From Nitrospirota bacterium (GTDB taxonomy: Bacteria; Nitrospirota; UBA9217), in the NCBI GenBank assembly GCA_963751455.1, contig CAVVUN010000001.1, positions 128,001 to 192,000 of the forward strand: a stretch of 64,000 nt of DNA, written 5' to 3'. A program made the translations under genes and the position numbers. The notes beneath the pieces were generated by a model. It was not told the DNA's origin. It worked only from the letters and a program-made list of their open reading frames with translations, and did not search any database. The stretch's first letter is position 1, and the number at the start of each line of letters is the position of its first letter. Of this stretch, positions 52,928 to 62,050 are shown piece by piece.

Positions 52928-53560
52928 TTACATTCCTGAACCGCCTGCTCCGCTCGAGCTGCTGCCCCTGCGCCGCCGAGCTGCTCGCATGATTCCGCCG
53001 GTGCCGTTTATTCCGCCTGTTCCTGTTCCATTCGTACCACCGGTCCCGGAGCCGCCCATTCCGGAACTGTCAGTGCCTCCTGTGCCTGAATCGAAGGTTC
53101 CCGTTCCTCCTGTGCCTAAATCAGTACCTGTTCCGCCGGTTCCCATGTCAGACGTTCCACCCATACCGGAACCATTCATGCCGCCGATGCCCGTGTCGCC
53201 CGTGCCTCCGGTACCCGAGCCGTTAATGGTACCAGTGCCGCCCGTGCCTCCGGTACCCGAGCCGTTAATGGTACCAGTGCCGCCCGTTCCCATGCCGTTC
53301 ATGGTACCGGTACCGCCCGTTCCCATGCCGTTCATGGTACCGGTACCGCCCGTTCCCATACCGTTCATGGTATCCGATCCACCGGTACCCGTTCCGTTGA
53401 TTCCGCCTGTGCCTGATCCGTTGGTTCCGCCTGTACCCATATCGCTTGTTCCTCCGGCACCGGAGCCGCTCGTGCTGCCGCTATAAGCGAATGCTACTGC
53501 AAAGGTAAGAGTGAAAATCGCTGCTGTGATAAGAGAAATCATCTTCCTCATCGCGTTCAC
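52928..53560 (-). CDS. Secreted Gly/Thr/Met-rich low-complexity repeat protein
   Basis: Signal peptide ending AFA-Y; many GMGTGGTGT(M/I)N-type repeats; own promoter and terminator. Confidence 0.75.
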   Translation of the reverse strand: MNAMRKMISLITAAIFTLTFAVAFAYSGSTSGSGAGGTSDMGTGGTNGSGTGGINGTGTGGSDTMNGMGTGGTGTMNGMGTGGTGTMNGMGTGGTGTINGSGTGGTGGTGTINGSGTGGTGDTGIGGMNGSGMGGTSDMGTGGTGTDLGTGGTGTFDSGTGGTDSSGMGGSGTGGTNGTGTGGINGTGGIMRAARRRRGSSSSGAGGSGM

Positions 53561-53797: not shown

Positions 53798-54205
53798 CTA
53801 ATAGCTTTTAGAACCGCTGCCAGAATTTGAACCGCTGGAACCTCCCGCGCCGGAGCCCGAACTATCCATGCTGTTCGATCCGCCCGCCCCCGAGCTGGAA
53901 CTGGAGCCATAGCCTTGCGAATCAGCGCCGCCTGTGCCCATACCATTCGTACCGGTGCCGCCGGTGCCCATGCCATCAGTCCCCGTACCGCCCGTACCCA
54001 TACCATCAGTCCCTGTGCCTCCCGTACCCATACCGTCAGTGCTCGTGCCGCCGGACCCGGTGCCGCTTGTACCGCTCTCACGATCTCCTTTTGAACCCCA
54101 TGCCAGTTGGTCTCCCTTTGAGAGGTCGGCCCCGTCATAGGCAAATGCCAGCCCAAAGGTAAGAACAAAAACAACAGCCATTCCAATCAAAAGCGTCTTC
54201 TTCAT
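53798..54205 (-). CDS. Secreted Gly/Thr/Ser-rich repeat protein (paralog of 52928-53560)
   Basis: Signal peptide ending AFA-Y; about four GMGTGGTGT(D/N)-type decamers; GAGAGG RBS. Confidence 0.75.
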   Translation of the reverse strand: MKKTLLIGMAVVFVLTFGLAFAYDGADLSKGDQLAWGSKGDRESGTSGTGSGGTSTDGMGTGGTGTDGMGTGGTGTDGMGTGGTGTNGMGTGGADSQGYGSSSSSGAGGSNSMDSSGSGAGGSSGSNSGSGSKSY

Positions 54206-55351: not shown

Positions 55352-55750
55352 AGAGACTGGAGGAGGGTTGAAGATACGATAGGCTTCGCAAAACTGATGG
55401 GCTATAGGAAAATCGGGATTGCAACCTGTATCGGACTCCTTGAAGAGACCAACCGTCTTGCCTCTGTTCTGAAAGCGCAGGGCTTCGTTCCAGTGAGCGT
55501 CTGCTGTAAGACAGGAAGCATTGACAAACTTGAGATGGGGTTATGCGATTCTTGCGATCTGAGCATCCTCGCTGTCACCGTGATAAAAATCAAAGCACTC
55601 TCTGATCTGTGCGTGTTCGTGTGTAGGGCAATACCCGAACTTTACCGGCCTCTTCGCCGGATCAGCGCTCCAGCAGTTCGTAGCGCCTGTCTTCCTTCAC
55701 GCCTCGCTGCAGACTGCCCACGAAAATTCATCAGTATTAGTCTTAGTCAT
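55352..55750. pseudogene. DUF1847-family pseudogene split across both strands
   Basis: Plus strand ~55352-55543: WRRVEDTIGFAKLMGYRKIGIATCIGL...VSVCCKTGSIDK. Minus strand 55750-55541: Cys-rich N-terminus with GGAGG RBS and an internal TGA. Confidence 0.65.
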
Positions 55751-55833
55751 TTGTCCCTCCCTGCTTTATCAGTAGTTGACTAAGACCTATACGATAGACC
55801 TCTACGCTGTTCTGTCAACAGGATAGTCCGGTC

Positions 55834-56297
55834 CTAGAGTGCGCCCTTCAGTGACCCTCTCGAGCGTTTTGTAACGCCCTTTACCAAATAGATCAACGGC
55901 GCAAATGGCGACATAATAAGTCCCCACCAGAAGAAGGTTTTCTTCAACATTCGCTTCTTGTATTTATCGGCGAAGTTTTGTTCCGTCTTCTTTTTCACAC
56001 AGTGAGTAAAATATTGGCAATGGTGTCCTATCTCATGGTAAAGGACAGCAGCAAGCATGAACTTGGCAACAAAAGGTAAGAAAAATACAAACCGAGGCAC
56101 GCCGCTGTAAATCGTACCTACAGCAAGTTCAATTCTAGCCGGTTCACGCCCCTTCCGTGGCCAATAGAGCCCGCCCGCTTTTTGATTCTTCTTGTATGTC
56201 AGATGATCAACAAGAGTGATCGAATCTAATCCAACCAGATGCTCTTGAGGAACTTTAATCAATAGTTTCGAAATTAGCTTTTCAAAGGGAAACCATA
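55834..56297 (-). pseudogene. Zincin-like (HExxH) protein whose 5' end is separated by the RAYT element
   Basis: AVLYHEIGHH motif; the first 14 codons in the ORF track come from the element; a candidate native start MIRTLL lies at 58142-58125. Confidence 0.55.
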
Positions 56298-56300
56298 GGG

Positions 56301-57170
56301 TCAAGTCTTTCTCCGTGTATTTTCGCTTTCTCGGAGCCAACGGCTAATTGTGGAATAGTGTACCCCCACTTGGCGTGCAATCTCGCTCTGGCGGTAGCCA
56401 TGCTTTTCAACAGCTTCGCTCAATCTTTTGTACATCTTCTTCTGATCTCGCTCAATCCCCTCGGGGAACAGGACATGCAATTGCGGTCTCGTTGCGTACC
56501 GCTGGCTCCGGGGAATTTCTGGGATATCCTTGTGTTTTTTAAGGCGATCGGTAAGTTTCTCGACAAAGCTGTCCTCGCCCAACAGAGCCTGGCCCCGTAC
56601 CTCGGTCCAAATACTCTTTTGCCCGATGCCCCAGGAAACGAACTGGCGATACTCCTGCTCCGCTTTTGAACGTTTTCGGCTGAATTGTCCAAGCACCCAG
56701 TCAGTCGTCAGACTCGGATGCGGCTCGGTTTTTCCGGCCGTAGCCAGATAACTGGACCATTTCCATTCATCTGGTTTTTCCATCAACGTGGCGCGAACAG
56801 GGTTCAAAACGACGTACCGGCAGACTTCCAGGAGATGACTGTCTTTCTGGATCAGAATGGCTTTATACCTGCCCTGGAAGAGGTGGCCAATCTTCCCGTT
56901 CCTTCTGTTAAAGAGCTGAGTATACACACCGTTCAACTGTCGCATCCCGAGGGACAAGTTGCCCTCCGGCGTCTCGATCAGGAGGTGATAATGGTTCGTC
57001 ATCAGGCAATATGCATGGCATATCCAGTTGTATCGCTTATTTACGTGTTGCAGGGTGTTCAGGAAGTTCTCGCGGTCCTGGTCGTCCTTAAAGATGGGCT
57101 TTTTCCGATTGCCGCGCGAGGTGACGTGATAGACCGCTCCAGGATATTCTATTCTTAGGGGTCGTGCCAT
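56301..57170 (-). CDS. REP-associated tyrosine transposase (Y1_Tnp plus C-terminal HTH), copy 2
   Basis: MARPLR..YPGAVYHVTSRGN, YCLMTNHYHLL (HUH), GHLFQGRYKA, RYVVLNPVRA, WSSY; C-terminal HTH. Confidence 0.9.
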   Translation of the reverse strand: MARPLRIEYPGAVYHVTSRGNRKKPIFKDDQDRENFLNTLQHVNKRYNWICHAYCLMTNHYHLLIETPEGNLSLGMRQLNGVYTQLFNRRNGKIGHLFQGRYKAILIQKDSHLLEVCRYVVLNPVRATLMEKPDEWKWSSYLATAGKTEPHPSLTTDWVLGQFSRKRSKAEQEYRQFVSWGIGQKSIWTEVRGQALLGEDSFVEKLTDRLKKHKDIPEIPRSQRYATRPQLHVLFPEGIERDQKKMYKRLSEAVEKHGYRQSEIARQVGVHYSTISRWLRESENTRRKT

Positions 57171-57202
57171 GCAGTTACCATAGCATAAGGGAAACCATAG
57201 GG

Positions 57203-58072
57203 TCAAGTCTTTCTCCGTGTATTTTCGCTTTCTCGGAGCCAACGGCTAATTGTGGAATAGTGTACCCCCACTTGGCGTGCAATCTCGCTCTGGCGGTAGC
57301 CATGCTTTTCAACAGCTTCGCTCAATCTTTTGTACATCTTCTTCTGATCTCGCTCAATCCCCTCGGGGAACAGGACATGCAATTGCGGTCTCGTTGCGTA
57401 CCGCTGGCTCCGGGGAATTTCTGGGATATCCTTGTGTTTTTTAAGGCGATCGGTAAGTTTCTCGACAAAGCTGTCCTCGCCCAACAGAGCCTGGCCCCGT
57501 ACCTCGGTCCAAATACTCTTTTGCCCGATGCCCCAGGAAACGAACTGGCGATACTCCTGCTCCGCTTTTGAACGTTTTCGGCTGAATTGTCCAAGCACCC
57601 AGTCAGTCGTCAGACTCGGATGCGGCTCGGTTTTTCCGGCCGTAGCCAGATAACTGGACCATTTCCATTCATCTGGTTTTTCCATCAACGTGGCGCGAAC
57701 AGGGTTCAAAACGACGTACCGGCAGACTTCCAGGAGATGACTGTCTTTCTGGATCAGAATGGCTTTATACCTGCCCTGGAAGAGGTGGCCAATCTTCCCG
57801 TTCCTTCTGTTAAAGAGCTGAGTATACACACCGTTCAACTGTCGCATCCCGAGGGACAAGTTGCCCTCCGGCGTCTCGATCAGGAGGTGATAATGGTTCG
57901 TCATCAGGCAATATGCATGGCATATCCAGTTGTATCGCTTATTTACGTGTTGCAGGGTGTTCAGGAAGTTCTCGCGGTCCTGGTCGTCCTTAAAGATGGG
58001 CTTTTTCCGATTGCCGCGCGAGGTGACGTGATAGACCGCTCCAGGATATTCTATTCTTAGGGGTCGTGCCAT
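57203..58072 (-). CDS. REP-associated tyrosine transposase (Y1_Tnp plus C-terminal HTH), copy 1
   Basis: Identical 289-aa translation to copy 2. Confidence 0.9.
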   Translation of the reverse strand: MARPLRIEYPGAVYHVTSRGNRKKPIFKDDQDRENFLNTLQHVNKRYNWICHAYCLMTNHYHLLIETPEGNLSLGMRQLNGVYTQLFNRRNGKIGHLFQGRYKAILIQKDSHLLEVCRYVVLNPVRATLMEKPDEWKWSSYLATAGKTEPHPSLTTDWVLGQFSRKRSKAEQEYRQFVSWGIGQKSIWTEVRGQALLGEDSFVEKLTDRLKKHKDIPEIPRSQRYATRPQLHVLFPEGIERDQKKMYKRLSEAVEKHGYRQSEIARQVGVHYSTISRWLRESENTRRKT

Positions 58073-58149
58073 GCAGTTACCATAGCATAATAAAATGTGA
58101 ATTGCAATAAGAAAGACTTGACCCTAAAAGGGTTCTGATCATATATAAA

Positions 58150-59667
58150 CCTTAACGTTGCATAAAAAATCGCTATGCGGCCCGTTGCAATCGGTCGAGA
58201 TAATGCAACAACCCCTTTTTGACTCGTGGATTGGCGTTCATTGTCAGAGTTAGCTTGCCGCCGGGCTGTGTCAGGCGGCCGGCACGCTGTATAAGTGTTC
58301 TTCGCAGGGTATTGGGCTCCGTGAACTCCCAAAGAGCGGCCCGTTTTTCGGTGGTGCCCCGGTCGGGTTCATGCGCGACCATGTGAAGTTCCTTCAGGAG
58401 ATTGTGCGAGATGATCGCCGACATCATGTATAGCTGATTTCCGTGCAATCTTCTCACAGCCACGTAATCCATATTGCACTGGGACTTTAGCTCTCCAAGG
58501 ATGTTTTCCTGAGAACCGCGGCCCTGATGGAAGTTCAGGACTTTCTTCACCGTCGTTGTTTTGTTTGTAACGATCACCTTGAAGTCAAACCCGTATTCGT
58601 GCGGCGTGAACATATCAAGCTGCACCGGCTCTTTTGACTGCTTTTTGGCTTTTTGACGAATAAAAAGAAAGCGGAACCGGCTGTCCCAGCTTTTCGGCTT
58701 CCAGGGTGTGTCGAAATAGGAAACAACGGAATCGTAACGCCTCCAGCGTTTTTTGGCTTCGATCATGTGTTTGAGTTCGGAGAACCGCTCAAAGGGGACC
58801 GAGATGGTGAACTCAATTCCGTCGCGCTCCAGCGCGCCGACGATTTCATCGCTGAAGAAAGCGCTGTCCATGCGCACTTCGATGACGATATCCGAACAGG
58901 TTGCACGCACCTGTTCGATGCACGCAAGGATGAACGCCCGGGCGCCGTTGGAATCATGTACGTTACCCGAACGGGGCAGGACGTCAAGGACCATGCCCAA
59001 CTGAGCGATCATGCAGAAAAGCGGATAATAGCTTCTCTGCCCTTTTTTCTTTTTGTTGAAGCCTACGGCGGCACCCTCAGCCCATCGGGAGGTCGAGAGC
59101 ACAGAGCCGTCGAAATCAAGCGTCACGCGACGAAGCTTCAAACCCTGTATGCGGGAGAGCGACATTTCCCGGCAGAACCGACGAAGATTCAAAATGTCCT
59201 TTGCGTCGACCGTCATCAATGCCCGGCTGATCGTGGAAACGTCCGGCATTTTTCGGAGGCCCAGAAGACGAAGCGCCATAAGGTCGTCCTGATAGTATTC
59301 GATGTCGCGGAGTTTCCGATAACCCAGCATCAGATGCACGATCAGCACGAGCGTAATGACGTGATTGCCGAAGATGGCGCTCGACGGTAGATGATCAAAG
59401 CAGCTTTTCAAGCGGGCTTTCAGATTCAGCTTCGTGAAGAATGCCTGAATGATAGCAAGGCCCGCGTAGGAAGTGAGCTGTTGATCCTCGAACTTCAGTT
59501 CCGGTATTTTGTGAACGCGGCTTAGAACCTGTGCTTTACTGGACTTCACTTTCAGTGGCCTCCTGCTTGAGTGAAATAATGATATCGCAGGAGCACTATA
59601 TCCAATAATGAAGCCTGTTTCCAGAGGTTTCTGCATATTTTCAAGAAATGTTTATGCAACTACAAGG
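58150..59667 (-). mobile_element. IS1380-family insertion sequence (~1518 bp)
   Basis: Termini CCTTAACGTTGCATAAA and CCTTGTAGTTGCATAAA (reverse complement of right end), 14/17 identical; no matching target duplication. Confidence 0.8.
58173..59549 (-). CDS. IS1380-family DDE transposase
   Basis: LTSYAGL, TLDFDGS, SYYPL, LPRSGNVH, VRMDSAFFS, RGSQENILGELK; GTG start after AGGAGG. Confidence 0.9.
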   Translation of the reverse strand: MKSSKAQVLSRVHKIPELKFEDQQLTSYAGLAIIQAFFTKLNLKARLKSCFDHLPSSAIFGNHVITLVLIVHLMLGYRKLRDIEYYQDDLMALRLLGLRKMPDVSTISRALMTVDAKDILNLRRFCREMSLSRIQGLKLRRVTLDFDGSVLSTSRWAEGAAVGFNKKKKGQRSYYPLFCMIAQLGMVLDVLPRSGNVHDSNGARAFILACIEQVRATCSDIVIEVRMDSAFFSDEIVGALERDGIEFTISVPFERFSELKHMIEAKKRWRRYDSVVSYFDTPWKPKSWDSRFRFLFIRQKAKKQSKEPVQLDMFTPHEYGFDFKVIVTNKTTTVKKVLNFHQGRGSQENILGELKSQCNMDYVAVRRLHGNQLYMMSAIISHNLLKELHMVAHEPDRGTTEKRAALWEFTEPNTLRRTLIQRAGRLTQPGGKLTLTMNANPRVKKGLLHYLDRLQRAA

Positions 59668-62050
59668 TTAATTCTCCGTAGGCGTTATAAATGAAAGTGG
59701 TTATCCCCGATTGCGGGTCCGTGATTATTTTCAGGTTACTCTTCGTGTCATACTCTAAAACGGACGCCATGTTTGCCGGGTCCGTCAGCCGGGTAAGATT
59801 GTCGTTGTTGTCATACGTCAAGAGGTGAATGTTTCCTAGAGGATCGGTTGTGCTGGTTATGTTACCCCGTGCGTCATATGTCAATGTCGTACTGTTACCA
59901 TTCGGATCCGTGATCCGGTTTATGTTGCCCTGTGCATCAAGCCCTCTGGACCATGTGTGACCTAACGGATCTATGATTTCCGTAATTTCTGCATACGGCT
60001 CCAGTTCATAGTAATACCATGTATTGCCGTTAGCGTCTTTTTTAATTACGTATTCACCCGGCGCTGAGTAGTCCGTCTTGTTTCCGAGAGGATCAATGAT
60101 CGAGCCCACCACGTAACCTATGTCCGCATCGTAATACACGTTGTTGATAGTCGTGGTCCCCTTTGTAGTTATGATGGAGCTCATGTAGCTGTACGTGTTG
60201 TAGGCGTATACCGCTTCATTTCCGGCCATATCCACGGAACGAATGAGGTTATTATTGGCGTCGTAATAGAAAAAAGCCTGTCTGTTTAAAGGGTCTGCTA
60301 TGGATGAAACCTTGCCGTTGGCCCCGTATGAAAAGGTTATTTGCCTTCCGGCCGCGCTTGTAACGGAGATAAGTCTGTTATTACCGTCATATTGAATCGT
60401 CACCAAATTGCTGTTAGCGTCCGTGATGCTACCAAGCCTTCCGGTTGCATCGAAATGCTGAGTAAGCTTCGTCTTTTTGATCTTCAGGCTGAAGGTCCCG
60501 TCCGGGTTTTTAATAAGGTTATCGTATACCCATCTCGGAGCAGTATAGATGCCGCCACCCGCAGGCGGAAAATTATCGACCTTGCCTGATCCCCGCTTTA
60601 TATCAACGTCGCCGCCTGGATTTTCAGTCAGCCTGGTCTCGTAGTTCGAAAACCAGCTTCTCCCGAAAATCCCCTCGCCCGGATCGTCCGCATTATACGT
60701 CCTTTTAACAAATACACCGGGCCCCCTGCCCCGAAGCACCACGTCTGTATCCAGTACGAGGTAATTTAAGTTAGAAAGGTTTACCTTCATACTGGGCATA
60801 CCGGGACTGCTGCATCCGCCGATGTCAGAGGGTTCGTCATATATGACAGGAGGATTGTCTTCGGCGTCTCCGGCATTGGTGCCGTGAAGATGATGACCTC
60901 CCCTTATCCCTTCCATCTGATTGATACTTAATTTATAAGATGAATAATTACTGTGCTCCTTATCAGGGAATACAAGGGCGGTCCCGCTCCATCTGTTCTT
61001 AAATTCTGCGGTCGTTAACGTTATATACCCTTTGTCCGGGTCGATGATGGAAACCTTTTCTTCCTGAAGATCTGTGACGGTAACAAAATGATTGATCTTC
61101 AAATGAGCGATCCACGGCGCTTTGATCAACTCCTTTGCTTCACCGAAACTTAATTTGGCGCCTATTGCTTCTACCCCGATTTCCCGTGAAGCTTTTTCCA
61201 AATCTTTCAAAGACAATATCAGGCCGTCTTTTGATAGCTTATTCTTTAGTGTCTTGCCTTTTATCTTCAAAACGTCCGCGAGCGCCTTTGAACCGCATGA
61301 TAAGGACGCTGTATTCTTAGCATGCTTGGCTGTGCGATTGATGATTTTAAGAAGGTACGTGGCCTCTTTGATAATGTTCCAGTCCTTGCTTTCGCGAAGC
61401 GCCTCTTTAAGCTCGCTGATTGAATTCTCGTAATCCCCGTTAAGAAAATGGAGCCTCGATAGTTTCAGTGCGGCTTGGTGGGCTACACGGGATTTGGGCG
61501 CAACTCTTTTTGCATTTACGAACGCCTTGACTGCCTCCTGGAAATCGCCCTCCTCATAGTATTCCCCCAATCTGAAATGGGATAATGCGGCTTCGGGCAG
61601 ATCGGGGAAACTCTCGGTTATTATCCTGTGTTTTGCGGCAACTTTATCCCATCTGCGGCCTTTCCAGTCTTCCTCCGCTTTATCGCTGATTTCCTTTATC
61701 GTCTTCGGTTCAATCGCGTTGAACGGGGAGCCGGCTTTTGCAGTATCCGGGGAAACAGATTCGATTACCGGAGCCGGGCTGAATATCGTAAATAAGAACG
61801 GGTCGGAAATTCCTCCGCCCGGCGAAGGATTTGTGACAGTCACCGGGACATCTCCGAGGGCGGCTAGCCAGTCTGTGGGAATCGCCGCCTGGATATTGTT
61901 ATTATCCTTGAAAAAGGTCTCTACGTCGCTCTTGTTGAACTGCGTCTGGCTCCCTCCCCTCTGTGTCAATATGACTGAGACACCTCCCCTATGGTAAATT
62001 AGAGTAGCGGGCGGGGGAGGAAATAACCTTATGATAGCAACAAAGATCAA
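59668..62050 (-). pseudogene. Truncated RHS/YD-repeat protein: IPT/TIG fragment, TPR, peptidase C39, GG motif, DUF6531-like domain, YD repeats
   Basis: C39 motifs SCG..AL, IAHL..NHFV.V, IIDP..G, F..RWSG.AL; VKRTYN...GIFGRSW; many YDxxGN/TDP.G repeats; the frame runs into the IS1380 end. Confidence 0.8.

Follow-up and report, generated by a model that had tools for sequence, protein, structure and literature searches.

The 64,000-nucleotide (nt) window analysed here, positions 128,001 to 192,000 of contig CAVVUN010000001.1 of a Nitrospirota bacterium (assembly GCA_963751455.1), contains a gene for a RAYT-like HUH transposase that is flanked by terminal inverted repeats (TIRs) and interrupts a gene for an HExxH-motif protein. 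The element is of a published kind, the TIRtron or TIRYT of TnpA-Y1 subclass 2.1. From sequence comparisons, we consider it probable that this is an intact, likely autonomous TIRtron that moves as a unit, and that its enzyme likely nicks DNA at tips lying outside the repeats. Comparison with intact alleles showed that on the left the inserted DNA ends 12 nt outside the repeat, and the same is likely on the right. Across the family, the tips are found re-copied in tandem as what we call stutters, and these re-copied tips likely mark the sites of DNA cutting and rejoining by the enzyme.

The names TIRYT and TIRtron were given to RAYT-like genes with flanking TIRs by Di Nocera, De Gregorio and Rocco in 2013 (PMC3733652), and Quentin in 2018 equated TIRtrons with TnpA-Y1 subclass 2.1, whose members have a C-terminal helix-turn-helix (HTH) and no repetitive extragenic palindromic (REP) sequences (PMC6006769). 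Statements on published work, here and below, refer to excerpts of the papers cited. RAYT Group 1, the same group as subclass 2.1, was described as the most IS-like RAYT group (Bertels 2017, PMC5581495). Because TIRtrons had already been published, the premise of the original prediction for this locus, that HUH genes with TIRs were unheard of, was wrong. The element resembles the published TIRtrons in its HUH/Tyr RAYT-like gene, in TIRs unrelated to REPs, in a repeat that may overlap the 3' end of the gene and in a GGGGWSAS-type motif (PMC3733652). The main text of that paper uses the terms 'target site' and 'duplication' 0 times, and no boundaries, mobility test or mechanism were found in these excerpts; in contrast to its description, the ends observed here lie 8-13 nt outside the repeat, stutter and are accompanied by target loss.

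Our results confirmed that the repeat arms at 56296-56312 and 58110-58126 are perfect inverted repeats, with 17/17 complementarity, and that the transposase stop codon lies within a repeat arm, namely the downstream one (open reading frames (ORFs) ending at 57203 and 56301). Two features had been overlooked: an exact tandem duplication, in which 56285-57188 recurs at 57187-58090 (start 56285-56287), and an IS1380 copy from 58150, a few bases beyond the proposed ATG. With its period of 902 nt, the duplication means that the span holds two complete 289-amino-acid genes and three repeat arms, the third at 57198-57214. The unit is 949 nt long without counting this 902-nt duplication of its left part. 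The basic unit of ~925 nt between repeat cores is the commonest size among 81 related elements, a set chosen for paired repeats, and the 52-nt spacing from core to ATG is likewise the commonest value among homologues (24/69).

The left boundary was defined by five metagenome loci that match the window at 90.7-95.2% identity up to position 56285, which is 12 nt outside the first G of the repeat core, and then diverge in 5/5 cases; two of these loci, L036 and L038, are identical in the stretch compared. Homology also ended at 56285 in contigs from independent sequencing runs (4/4 runs). Thus, the WFPF codons and the TA next to the repeat belong to the inserted DNA. The original prediction had reconstructed an empty site by joining an ATG beyond the right repeat to these codons. 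The two peptides do read in frame, but the join is not the empty site, since the intact alleles diverge at 56285. Comparison with intact HExxH homologues, which had been put forward in advance as a refutation test, also went against the reconstruction, which differs from them by ~16 N-terminal residues. Among 18 homologues of the protein, 16 begin with ~15 further N-terminal residues, the other two have a later annotated start, and the reconstructed join resembles none of them; a few distant ones have PF nearby, but two residues further from the shared EK. The HExxH protein had no Pfam or NCBIfam match, and the Atlas gave unnamed clusters only. In L034 and L036, its gene lies directly behind an RHS C-terminal ORF, and it may be an immunity-type gene.

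On the right, only 25 nt survive upstream of the element before the IS1380 copy. They include an 8-nt match to the intact alleles, ending 12 nt outside the core, which lies 78 nt upstream of the left junction in 3/3 alleles tested; a match of this kind arose by chance in 74-91 of 5000 cases (about 1.5-1.8%). These alignments suggest that the element likely inserted with ~78 nt of target lost, a stretch that comprised the end of an RHS ORF together with some 16 initial codons of the HExxH gene. The loss may have occurred either at insertion or by later trimming. Another element, in L021, splits an RHS core motif whose normal spacing is 26-30 residues in 13/16 intact examples. Only 5-8 residues remain there, compared to 26-27 in the closest intact examples, so that roughly 18-22 codons are gone.

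Twelve junctions, eleven of them ends in the host genome and one in a relative, could be compared with uninterrupted sequence at 87-100% identity. Relative to the first G of the core, they fell at -8 (one), -9 (three), -10 (two), -11 (two) and -12 (four), and none fell at 0 or -2. Left out of this tally were IS1380 ends (-19 to -24), places where paralogues diverge (-28, -21 and -15), four ends for which the only matches were short or 81-90% repeat matches (-19/-21, -7/-10, -8 and -10), one end that lacked confirmation (+14), a further nested junction (+12), one stutter copy (-29) and the filled orthologues L008/L129. Flank peptides were scanned against Pfam in two sets, 115 from 62 elements and 95 from 19 elements (the second comprising 93 chosen from 221 open stretches, plus two from L034/L036), and in neither set was a domain split between the two ends of an element. 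Truncated domains adjoin one element end in L124, L135, L168, L171, L175 and L195, and the L244 and L245 elements lie between an RHS core and an apparent C-terminal remnant. A palindromic target composed of two back-to-back tips was rejected, as this pattern occurs 0 times in the genome. TIRtrons often lie in RHS polymorphic-toxin loci (window 55834-62050; L005, L021, L244 and L245).

The flanking repeats proved to be a trait of the family. An inverted repeat scoring at least 12 was found around 60/80 full-length homologues, as compared to 1/80 for the best of five shuffles each, and therefore the repeats are not due to chance. The counts varied with strictness, being 52/80 in an anchored test and 17/39 at further loci, which include repeats of earlier failures. 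Homologues with repeats occur in many genomes, at loci unrelated to one another. Immediately outside the core, 99% of 162 ends have A or G, and two positions outside the core T is the most frequent base (60%). The A of the flanking 'TA' is the repeat's own purine position and matches the first G of the published GGGGWSAS. This motif, which is partly fixed by the anchor pattern used, is present exactly in 68/162 related ends, and the window copy matches it at 6/8 positions. Hairpins were not evident at the ends, with z values of -0.55 and -1.17 in the window and z below -2 in 4/161 family ends. The host genome has many solo repeat-like ends and many partial copies. We also observed short non-coding or internally deleted derivatives with paired repeats, similar to miniature inverted-repeat transposable elements, of 73 nt (C12:213393-213465) and 315 nt (C12:243924-244238). 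At L167:930-990, a distant homologue has 58-nt palindromic repeats with two head-to-head motif copies, unlike the rest.

Stutters were found at 43/161 family ends, compared to 3/161 and 0/162 neighbouring control sites, and in a further count at 31/103 ends, compared to 90/9,683 random positions. In a scan from -60 to +30, 41/50 innermost duplications start at -13 to -6. Their inner ends vary and are commonly at 0, +1 or +6, extending out to +31. Stutters are 6-40 nt long, with long cases of 115 nt (1 mismatch) and of 902 nt in the window, occur at both element ends and show microhomology of 0-1 nt in 35/43 cases, which argues against slippage; slippage is accordingly disfavoured as their source. 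The dinucleotide at the stutter junction is not fixed (9 different ones among 23), and since the stuttered sequence varies between elements, its position matters more than its sequence. Orthologous pairs align well in the further flank, but the bases immediately outside their repeats have been rewritten. Tyrosine-recombinase genes adjoin several elements (L195, L117 and L168), and in L195 (C1:554300-557200) an integrase is truncated at position 137 of its 172-position profile, right before a stutter array.

Evidence for movement came from five near-full paralogues in the host genome, which are 96-98% identical to each other and ~74% identical to the window copy and occupy unrelated sites. In 6/10 pairs at each end, these paralogues agree to 9-12 nt outside the core and then diverge; the exceptions are pairs that include one copy substituted at -4 or -6. 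Tips shared by such similar copies at unrelated sites support mobility as a unit. Three copies at 97% identity are present on different contigs of genome G011, and element copies interrupt genes and one another. These comparisons support a recent multiplication, as a unit, of this RAYT-like subgroup, which has a C-terminal HTH. Of the earlier proposal that the subgroup is a mobile TIR element with a TA target, the TIRs at unrelated loci and the recent multiplication hold, but the TA target does not. At C15:1324718 and C15:787230, two different TIRtron types each meet copies of a third type at one and the same base, which follows codon 8. This base lies ~77 nt inside the third type's repeat and represents either a hot spot or shared ancestry.

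The transposase contains Y1_Tnp and HTH_23 domains by Pfam scan (HTH_23, 26.3 bits, cut-off 24.6; HTH_28 slightly below cut-off) and passes NF047646 REP_Tyr_transpos (92.8 bits, cut-off 80). It scored only 16.2 bits with the IS200/IS605 model NF033573 (cut-off 55), and its match to NF033545, used as a test for the IS630/Tc1 type, was confined to the HTH part (17.9 bits, cut-off 100). Residues H60, H62, Y119 and N123 are invariant across 37/37 aligned relatives. The NH[YF]H, FQ and SS motifs of subclass 2.1.2 are present, and the tyrosine motif, both in the transposase and in the consensus of its relatives, is YVVLNP, one position off Y[IV]HLNP. The published subclass 2.1.2 is thus matched in its NHYH, FQ and SS motifs, its C-terminal HTH_23/28 and its lack of REPs, but differs in having Y[IV]HLNP in place of YVVLNP (PMC6006769). 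An alignment-based structure model (pLDDT 87.2) predicted a helical C-terminal domain and a fold nearest to that of TnpA-REP (4ER8), followed by the ISDra2 and IS608 enzymes; single-sequence prediction was poor (pLDDT 45.7). A profile search also retrieved 4ER8 (E 0.0035), and a phmmer search with the transposase gave no PDB match. Strong matches to the transposase were present in 67/251 genomes of Nitrospirota.

We propose that the HTH binds the inverted repeat as duplex DNA, which would be the likeliest guide because the ends form no hairpins. The HUH domain would then cut the strand that runs into the element, ~10 nt (one helical turn) outside the repeat, and the enzyme would stay linked via Tyr119 to the 5' tip of the element. 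A nick at this place on the entering strand would give stutters their fixed start and variable end. The freed 3'-OH of the flank might be extended by host polymerase, generating a stutter of 6-40, sometimes 115 or 902 nt, or it might be trimmed, causing flank loss, after which the enzyme would reseal. Transposition would follow the same chemistry but use a foreign 3'-OH, with one tip joined on each strand, and joining of this kind would yield variable target loss, not duplication. Cleavage by HUH enzymes produces a 5'-phosphotyrosine and a free 3'-OH; this polarity is published for TnpA-REP, for which a cut-extend-rejoin route to tandem amplification has also been proposed (PMC3333891). How both tips reach a new site has one consistent answer, which we offer tentatively and regard as possible but doubtful. 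It is an undescribed pathway with the polarity of DDE enzymes reversed, in which an HUH enzyme bound to the duplex inverted repeats would make nicks one helical turn outside both ends on opposite strands, host polymerase would copy the element from both flank 3'-OH ends, and the two tyrosine-charged 5' tips left over would each be joined, independently of the other, to whatever free 3'-OH is available, broken ends of the chromosome among them.

The reading that the original prediction adopted was a TA target duplicated on insertion, as for a cut-and-paste element of the IS630/Tc1-like type that ends at its repeats. TA does stand beside both arms here and at both ends of 23/80 elements, and the preference for T two positions outside the core would also fit. 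However, 57/80 elements lack TA at one or both ends, target homology ends 12 nt further out with no junction where this model would place it, the A coincides with the purine position of the repeat, and the reconstructed N-terminus is unlike those of the HExxH homologues. Direct repeats of at least 6 nt were found in 3/80 elements as compared to 3.55 in permuted pairs, and target duplications of fixed length, at offsets 0-16, were at chance level. We consider this model hardly credible, and TA duplication with an in-frame empty site is rejected at the locus by the intact alleles, the HExxH homologues and the chance-level duplications. The comparison of flanks among RAYT homologues, which had been suggested as a check, therefore bore out the inverted repeats at unrelated loci but not the TA. 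It is also conceivable that the gene is mostly sedentary and REPtron-like, its enzyme nicking and resealing near the repeats and rewriting its own flanks, with whole-element moves being rare and due to recombination or hitch-hiking. Orthologous copies retained across species with rewritten tips, frequent solo repeat-like ends and partial copies in the host genome, and the rare or absent plasmid and viral matches would all agree with this, as would the 6.3% duplicates and 1.2% plasmid carriage given for Group 1 (Bertels 2017, PMC5581495). The five highly similar paralogues at unrelated sites, with homology ending just outside both repeats, the G011 copies and those lying inside genes and each other are at odds with it. 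We judge this possibility unlikely, although it deserves to be taken seriously.

A single-strand route as in IS200 or IS91 would involve a single-stranded circle or one-ended rolling-circle copying and insertion at replication forks, with stutters representing short one-ended products beside the parent end. One-ended rolling-circle copying in IS91 gives a fixed start and a variable end, as stutters have, while IS200/IS605 insertion loses no target. The catalytic fold is the same as that of the IS608 and ISDra2 enzymes, and nested partial copies do occur. On the other hand, the ends are without hairpins, they are inverted, so that the tips show the same motif on opposite strands, both ends stutter, and target loss is seen here; we regard this route as improbable. 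For the 902-nt duplication only, an assembly artefact has to be weighed. The two copies are 100% identical and are known from the assembly alone, but the duplication starts within 1 nt of the tip that the intact alleles define independently, and smaller duplications from the same position exist in other genomes (37 and 40 nt, and the 115-nt case with its single mismatch). An artefact thus seems quite improbable.

Several observations weigh against the reading of the element as a mobile unit nicked at its tips. In the host genome the window element lacks a close copy, the nearest other one being 74% identical in nucleotide sequence. Copies can stay in place for long periods: L251 and L253 keep their element at one site, with both flanks 88% identical over 3.8 kb, and L008 and L129 share one flank at 93%. 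The tips of these pairs were rewritten in place, which means that neither tips nor deletions have to be as old as the insertion. Plasmid carriage amounted to 3/72,556 records, and viral contigs gave no matches. Both-flank searches with 64 and then 81 elements returned no clean filled/empty pair, only nested transposase pieces, although the informative loci were few, and genus searches with four flanks returned only RHS paralogues or the query itself. Both junctions were obtained at two loci only, each weakly, by the 8-nt match here and by protein-motif spacing in L021. The sequencing runs contained only small shares of the stretch and no reads over this locus, which leaves the 902-nt duplication dependent on the assembly; they are no guide to habitat either. 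The literature searched contained no biochemistry for subclass 2.1.

IS630/Tc1-mariner elements have TIRs, a DDE enzyme and a true TA duplication; the element described here is like them in appearance only, with TIRs beside TA, and has neither a DDE domain nor a TA duplication. With IS200/IS605 elements such as IS608 and ISDra2 it shares the HUH/Y1 core, likely autonomy and the lack of target duplication, but the ends of those elements are strand-specific, with subterminal hairpins in place of TIRs (PMC3333891, PMC6006769), whereas the ends here are inverted, hairpin-free and imprecise. The closest solved fold is that of TnpA-REP (PDB 4ER8), and the amplification by cutting, extending and rejoining that was published for it fits the stutters (Ton-Hoang 2012, PMC3333891). 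TnpA-REP of the E. coli REPtron and its bacterial interspersed mosaic elements, which is without an HTH, binds GTAG-tagged hairpins and cuts at CT, and REPtrons seem not to move as a unit (PMC3333891). In contrast, the elements here have no hairpins and no fixed dinucleotide at the stutter junction, and the whole gene probably moves; tetranucleotide-tagged REP hairpins were not found at the flanks. For subclass 2.1 and Group 1, the literature gives 1.9 copies and 49% mean identity and leaves the function open (PMC6006769, PMC5581495), as compared to the recent 96-98% copies found here. Full-text searches, in which most subscription journals were not covered, turned up no description of the tips, the stutters, the missing duplication or the target loss, and the supplements of PMC3733652 and PMC6006769 may list boundaries. 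The term 'TIRYT' occurred in two works only in the texts searched.

The IS1380 element next to the right tip is one of 10 near-identical copies in the genome (99.9-100%), and the RHS ORF terminates at its far side. This copy (58150-59668) has no matching direct repeat at its sides and joins the cut RHS ORF to the target remnant, which is consistent with an adjacent deletion. At the junction of the 902-nt duplication (57206-57177, minus strand), an outward TTGACC of the repeat arm lies 18 nt before the TATGGT box of the gene, which sits 6 nt before the ATG, and this pairing may restore a promoter for copy 1. In the original gene, TTGCAA lies 17 nt before the same TATGGT box, a spacing that suggests a leaderless transcript with a -35 element adjoining the repeat. 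A promoter scan gave a single site, at chance level (1 vs a mean of 1.6). Elsewhere in the window, two minus-strand ORFs (52928-53560 and 53798-54205) code for signal-peptide-like, Gly/Thr-rich proteins with GTGG-type repeats, and a DUF1847 fragment at 55397-55783, covering profile positions 53-106 of 157 only, looks like a remnant.

Table 1. Coordinates of the TIRtron and adjoining features in the window.
Feature	Position	Strand	Remarks
3' part of HExxH-motif gene, from ~codon 16	55834..56285	-	90.7-95.2% identity over 419 nt to L034-L038
Left outer tip	56286..56297	+	12 nt, non-target, 'TA' included; intact-allele homology ends at 56285
Left (downstream) inverted-repeat arm	56296..56312	+	Conserved core starts at 56297-56298
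First unit of tandem duplication	56285..57188	.	Exact, period 902 nt; giant stutter from left tip; 2-nt microhomology
Transposase copy 1	56301..57170	-	289 amino acids, intact, within duplicated block; tblastn 100% over 289 amino acids
Second copy of left tip and repeat arm, at duplication junction	57187..57214	+	
Transposase copy 2	57203..58072	-	HUH (H60, H62), catalytic-position Y119, N123, WSS motif, C-terminal HTH
Right (upstream) inverted-repeat arm	58110..58126	-	Core 52 nt before ATG
Right outer tip	58125..58136	-	12 nt; boundary likely, bounded by 8-nt target remnant
Probable target remnant	58137..58144	-	8 nt; in intact alleles L034, L035 and L037, 78 nt upstream of left junction
IS1380-family element	58150..59668	-	Unrelated neighbour; remaining upstream flank cut off here

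Subclass 2.1 is the second largest TnpA-Y1 subclass, present in about 15% of species (Quentin 2018, PMC6006769), and published work leaves its substrate and activity open. This locus adds an empty allele at the nucleotide level that refutes the TA target, a stutter of almost full length beginning at the tip this allele defines, and multi-copy paralogues which show that the tips travel with the element. The comparisons define concrete substrates, in terms of strand, distance from the repeat (6-13 nt) and expected products. If our reading is true, HUH transposition would extend beyond hairpin-guided single-stranded DNA, and every end would be misplaced by ~10 nt wherever annotation takes the repeats as the limits of the element and the TA as a duplication. 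The more tentative pathway of reversed polarity, if true, would entail variable deletion with no target sequence and no duplication, and would make the 902-nt stutter a nearly finished round of copying that was resealed early. It would then represent a natural tyrosine-charged DNA-joining system across many bacterial phyla.

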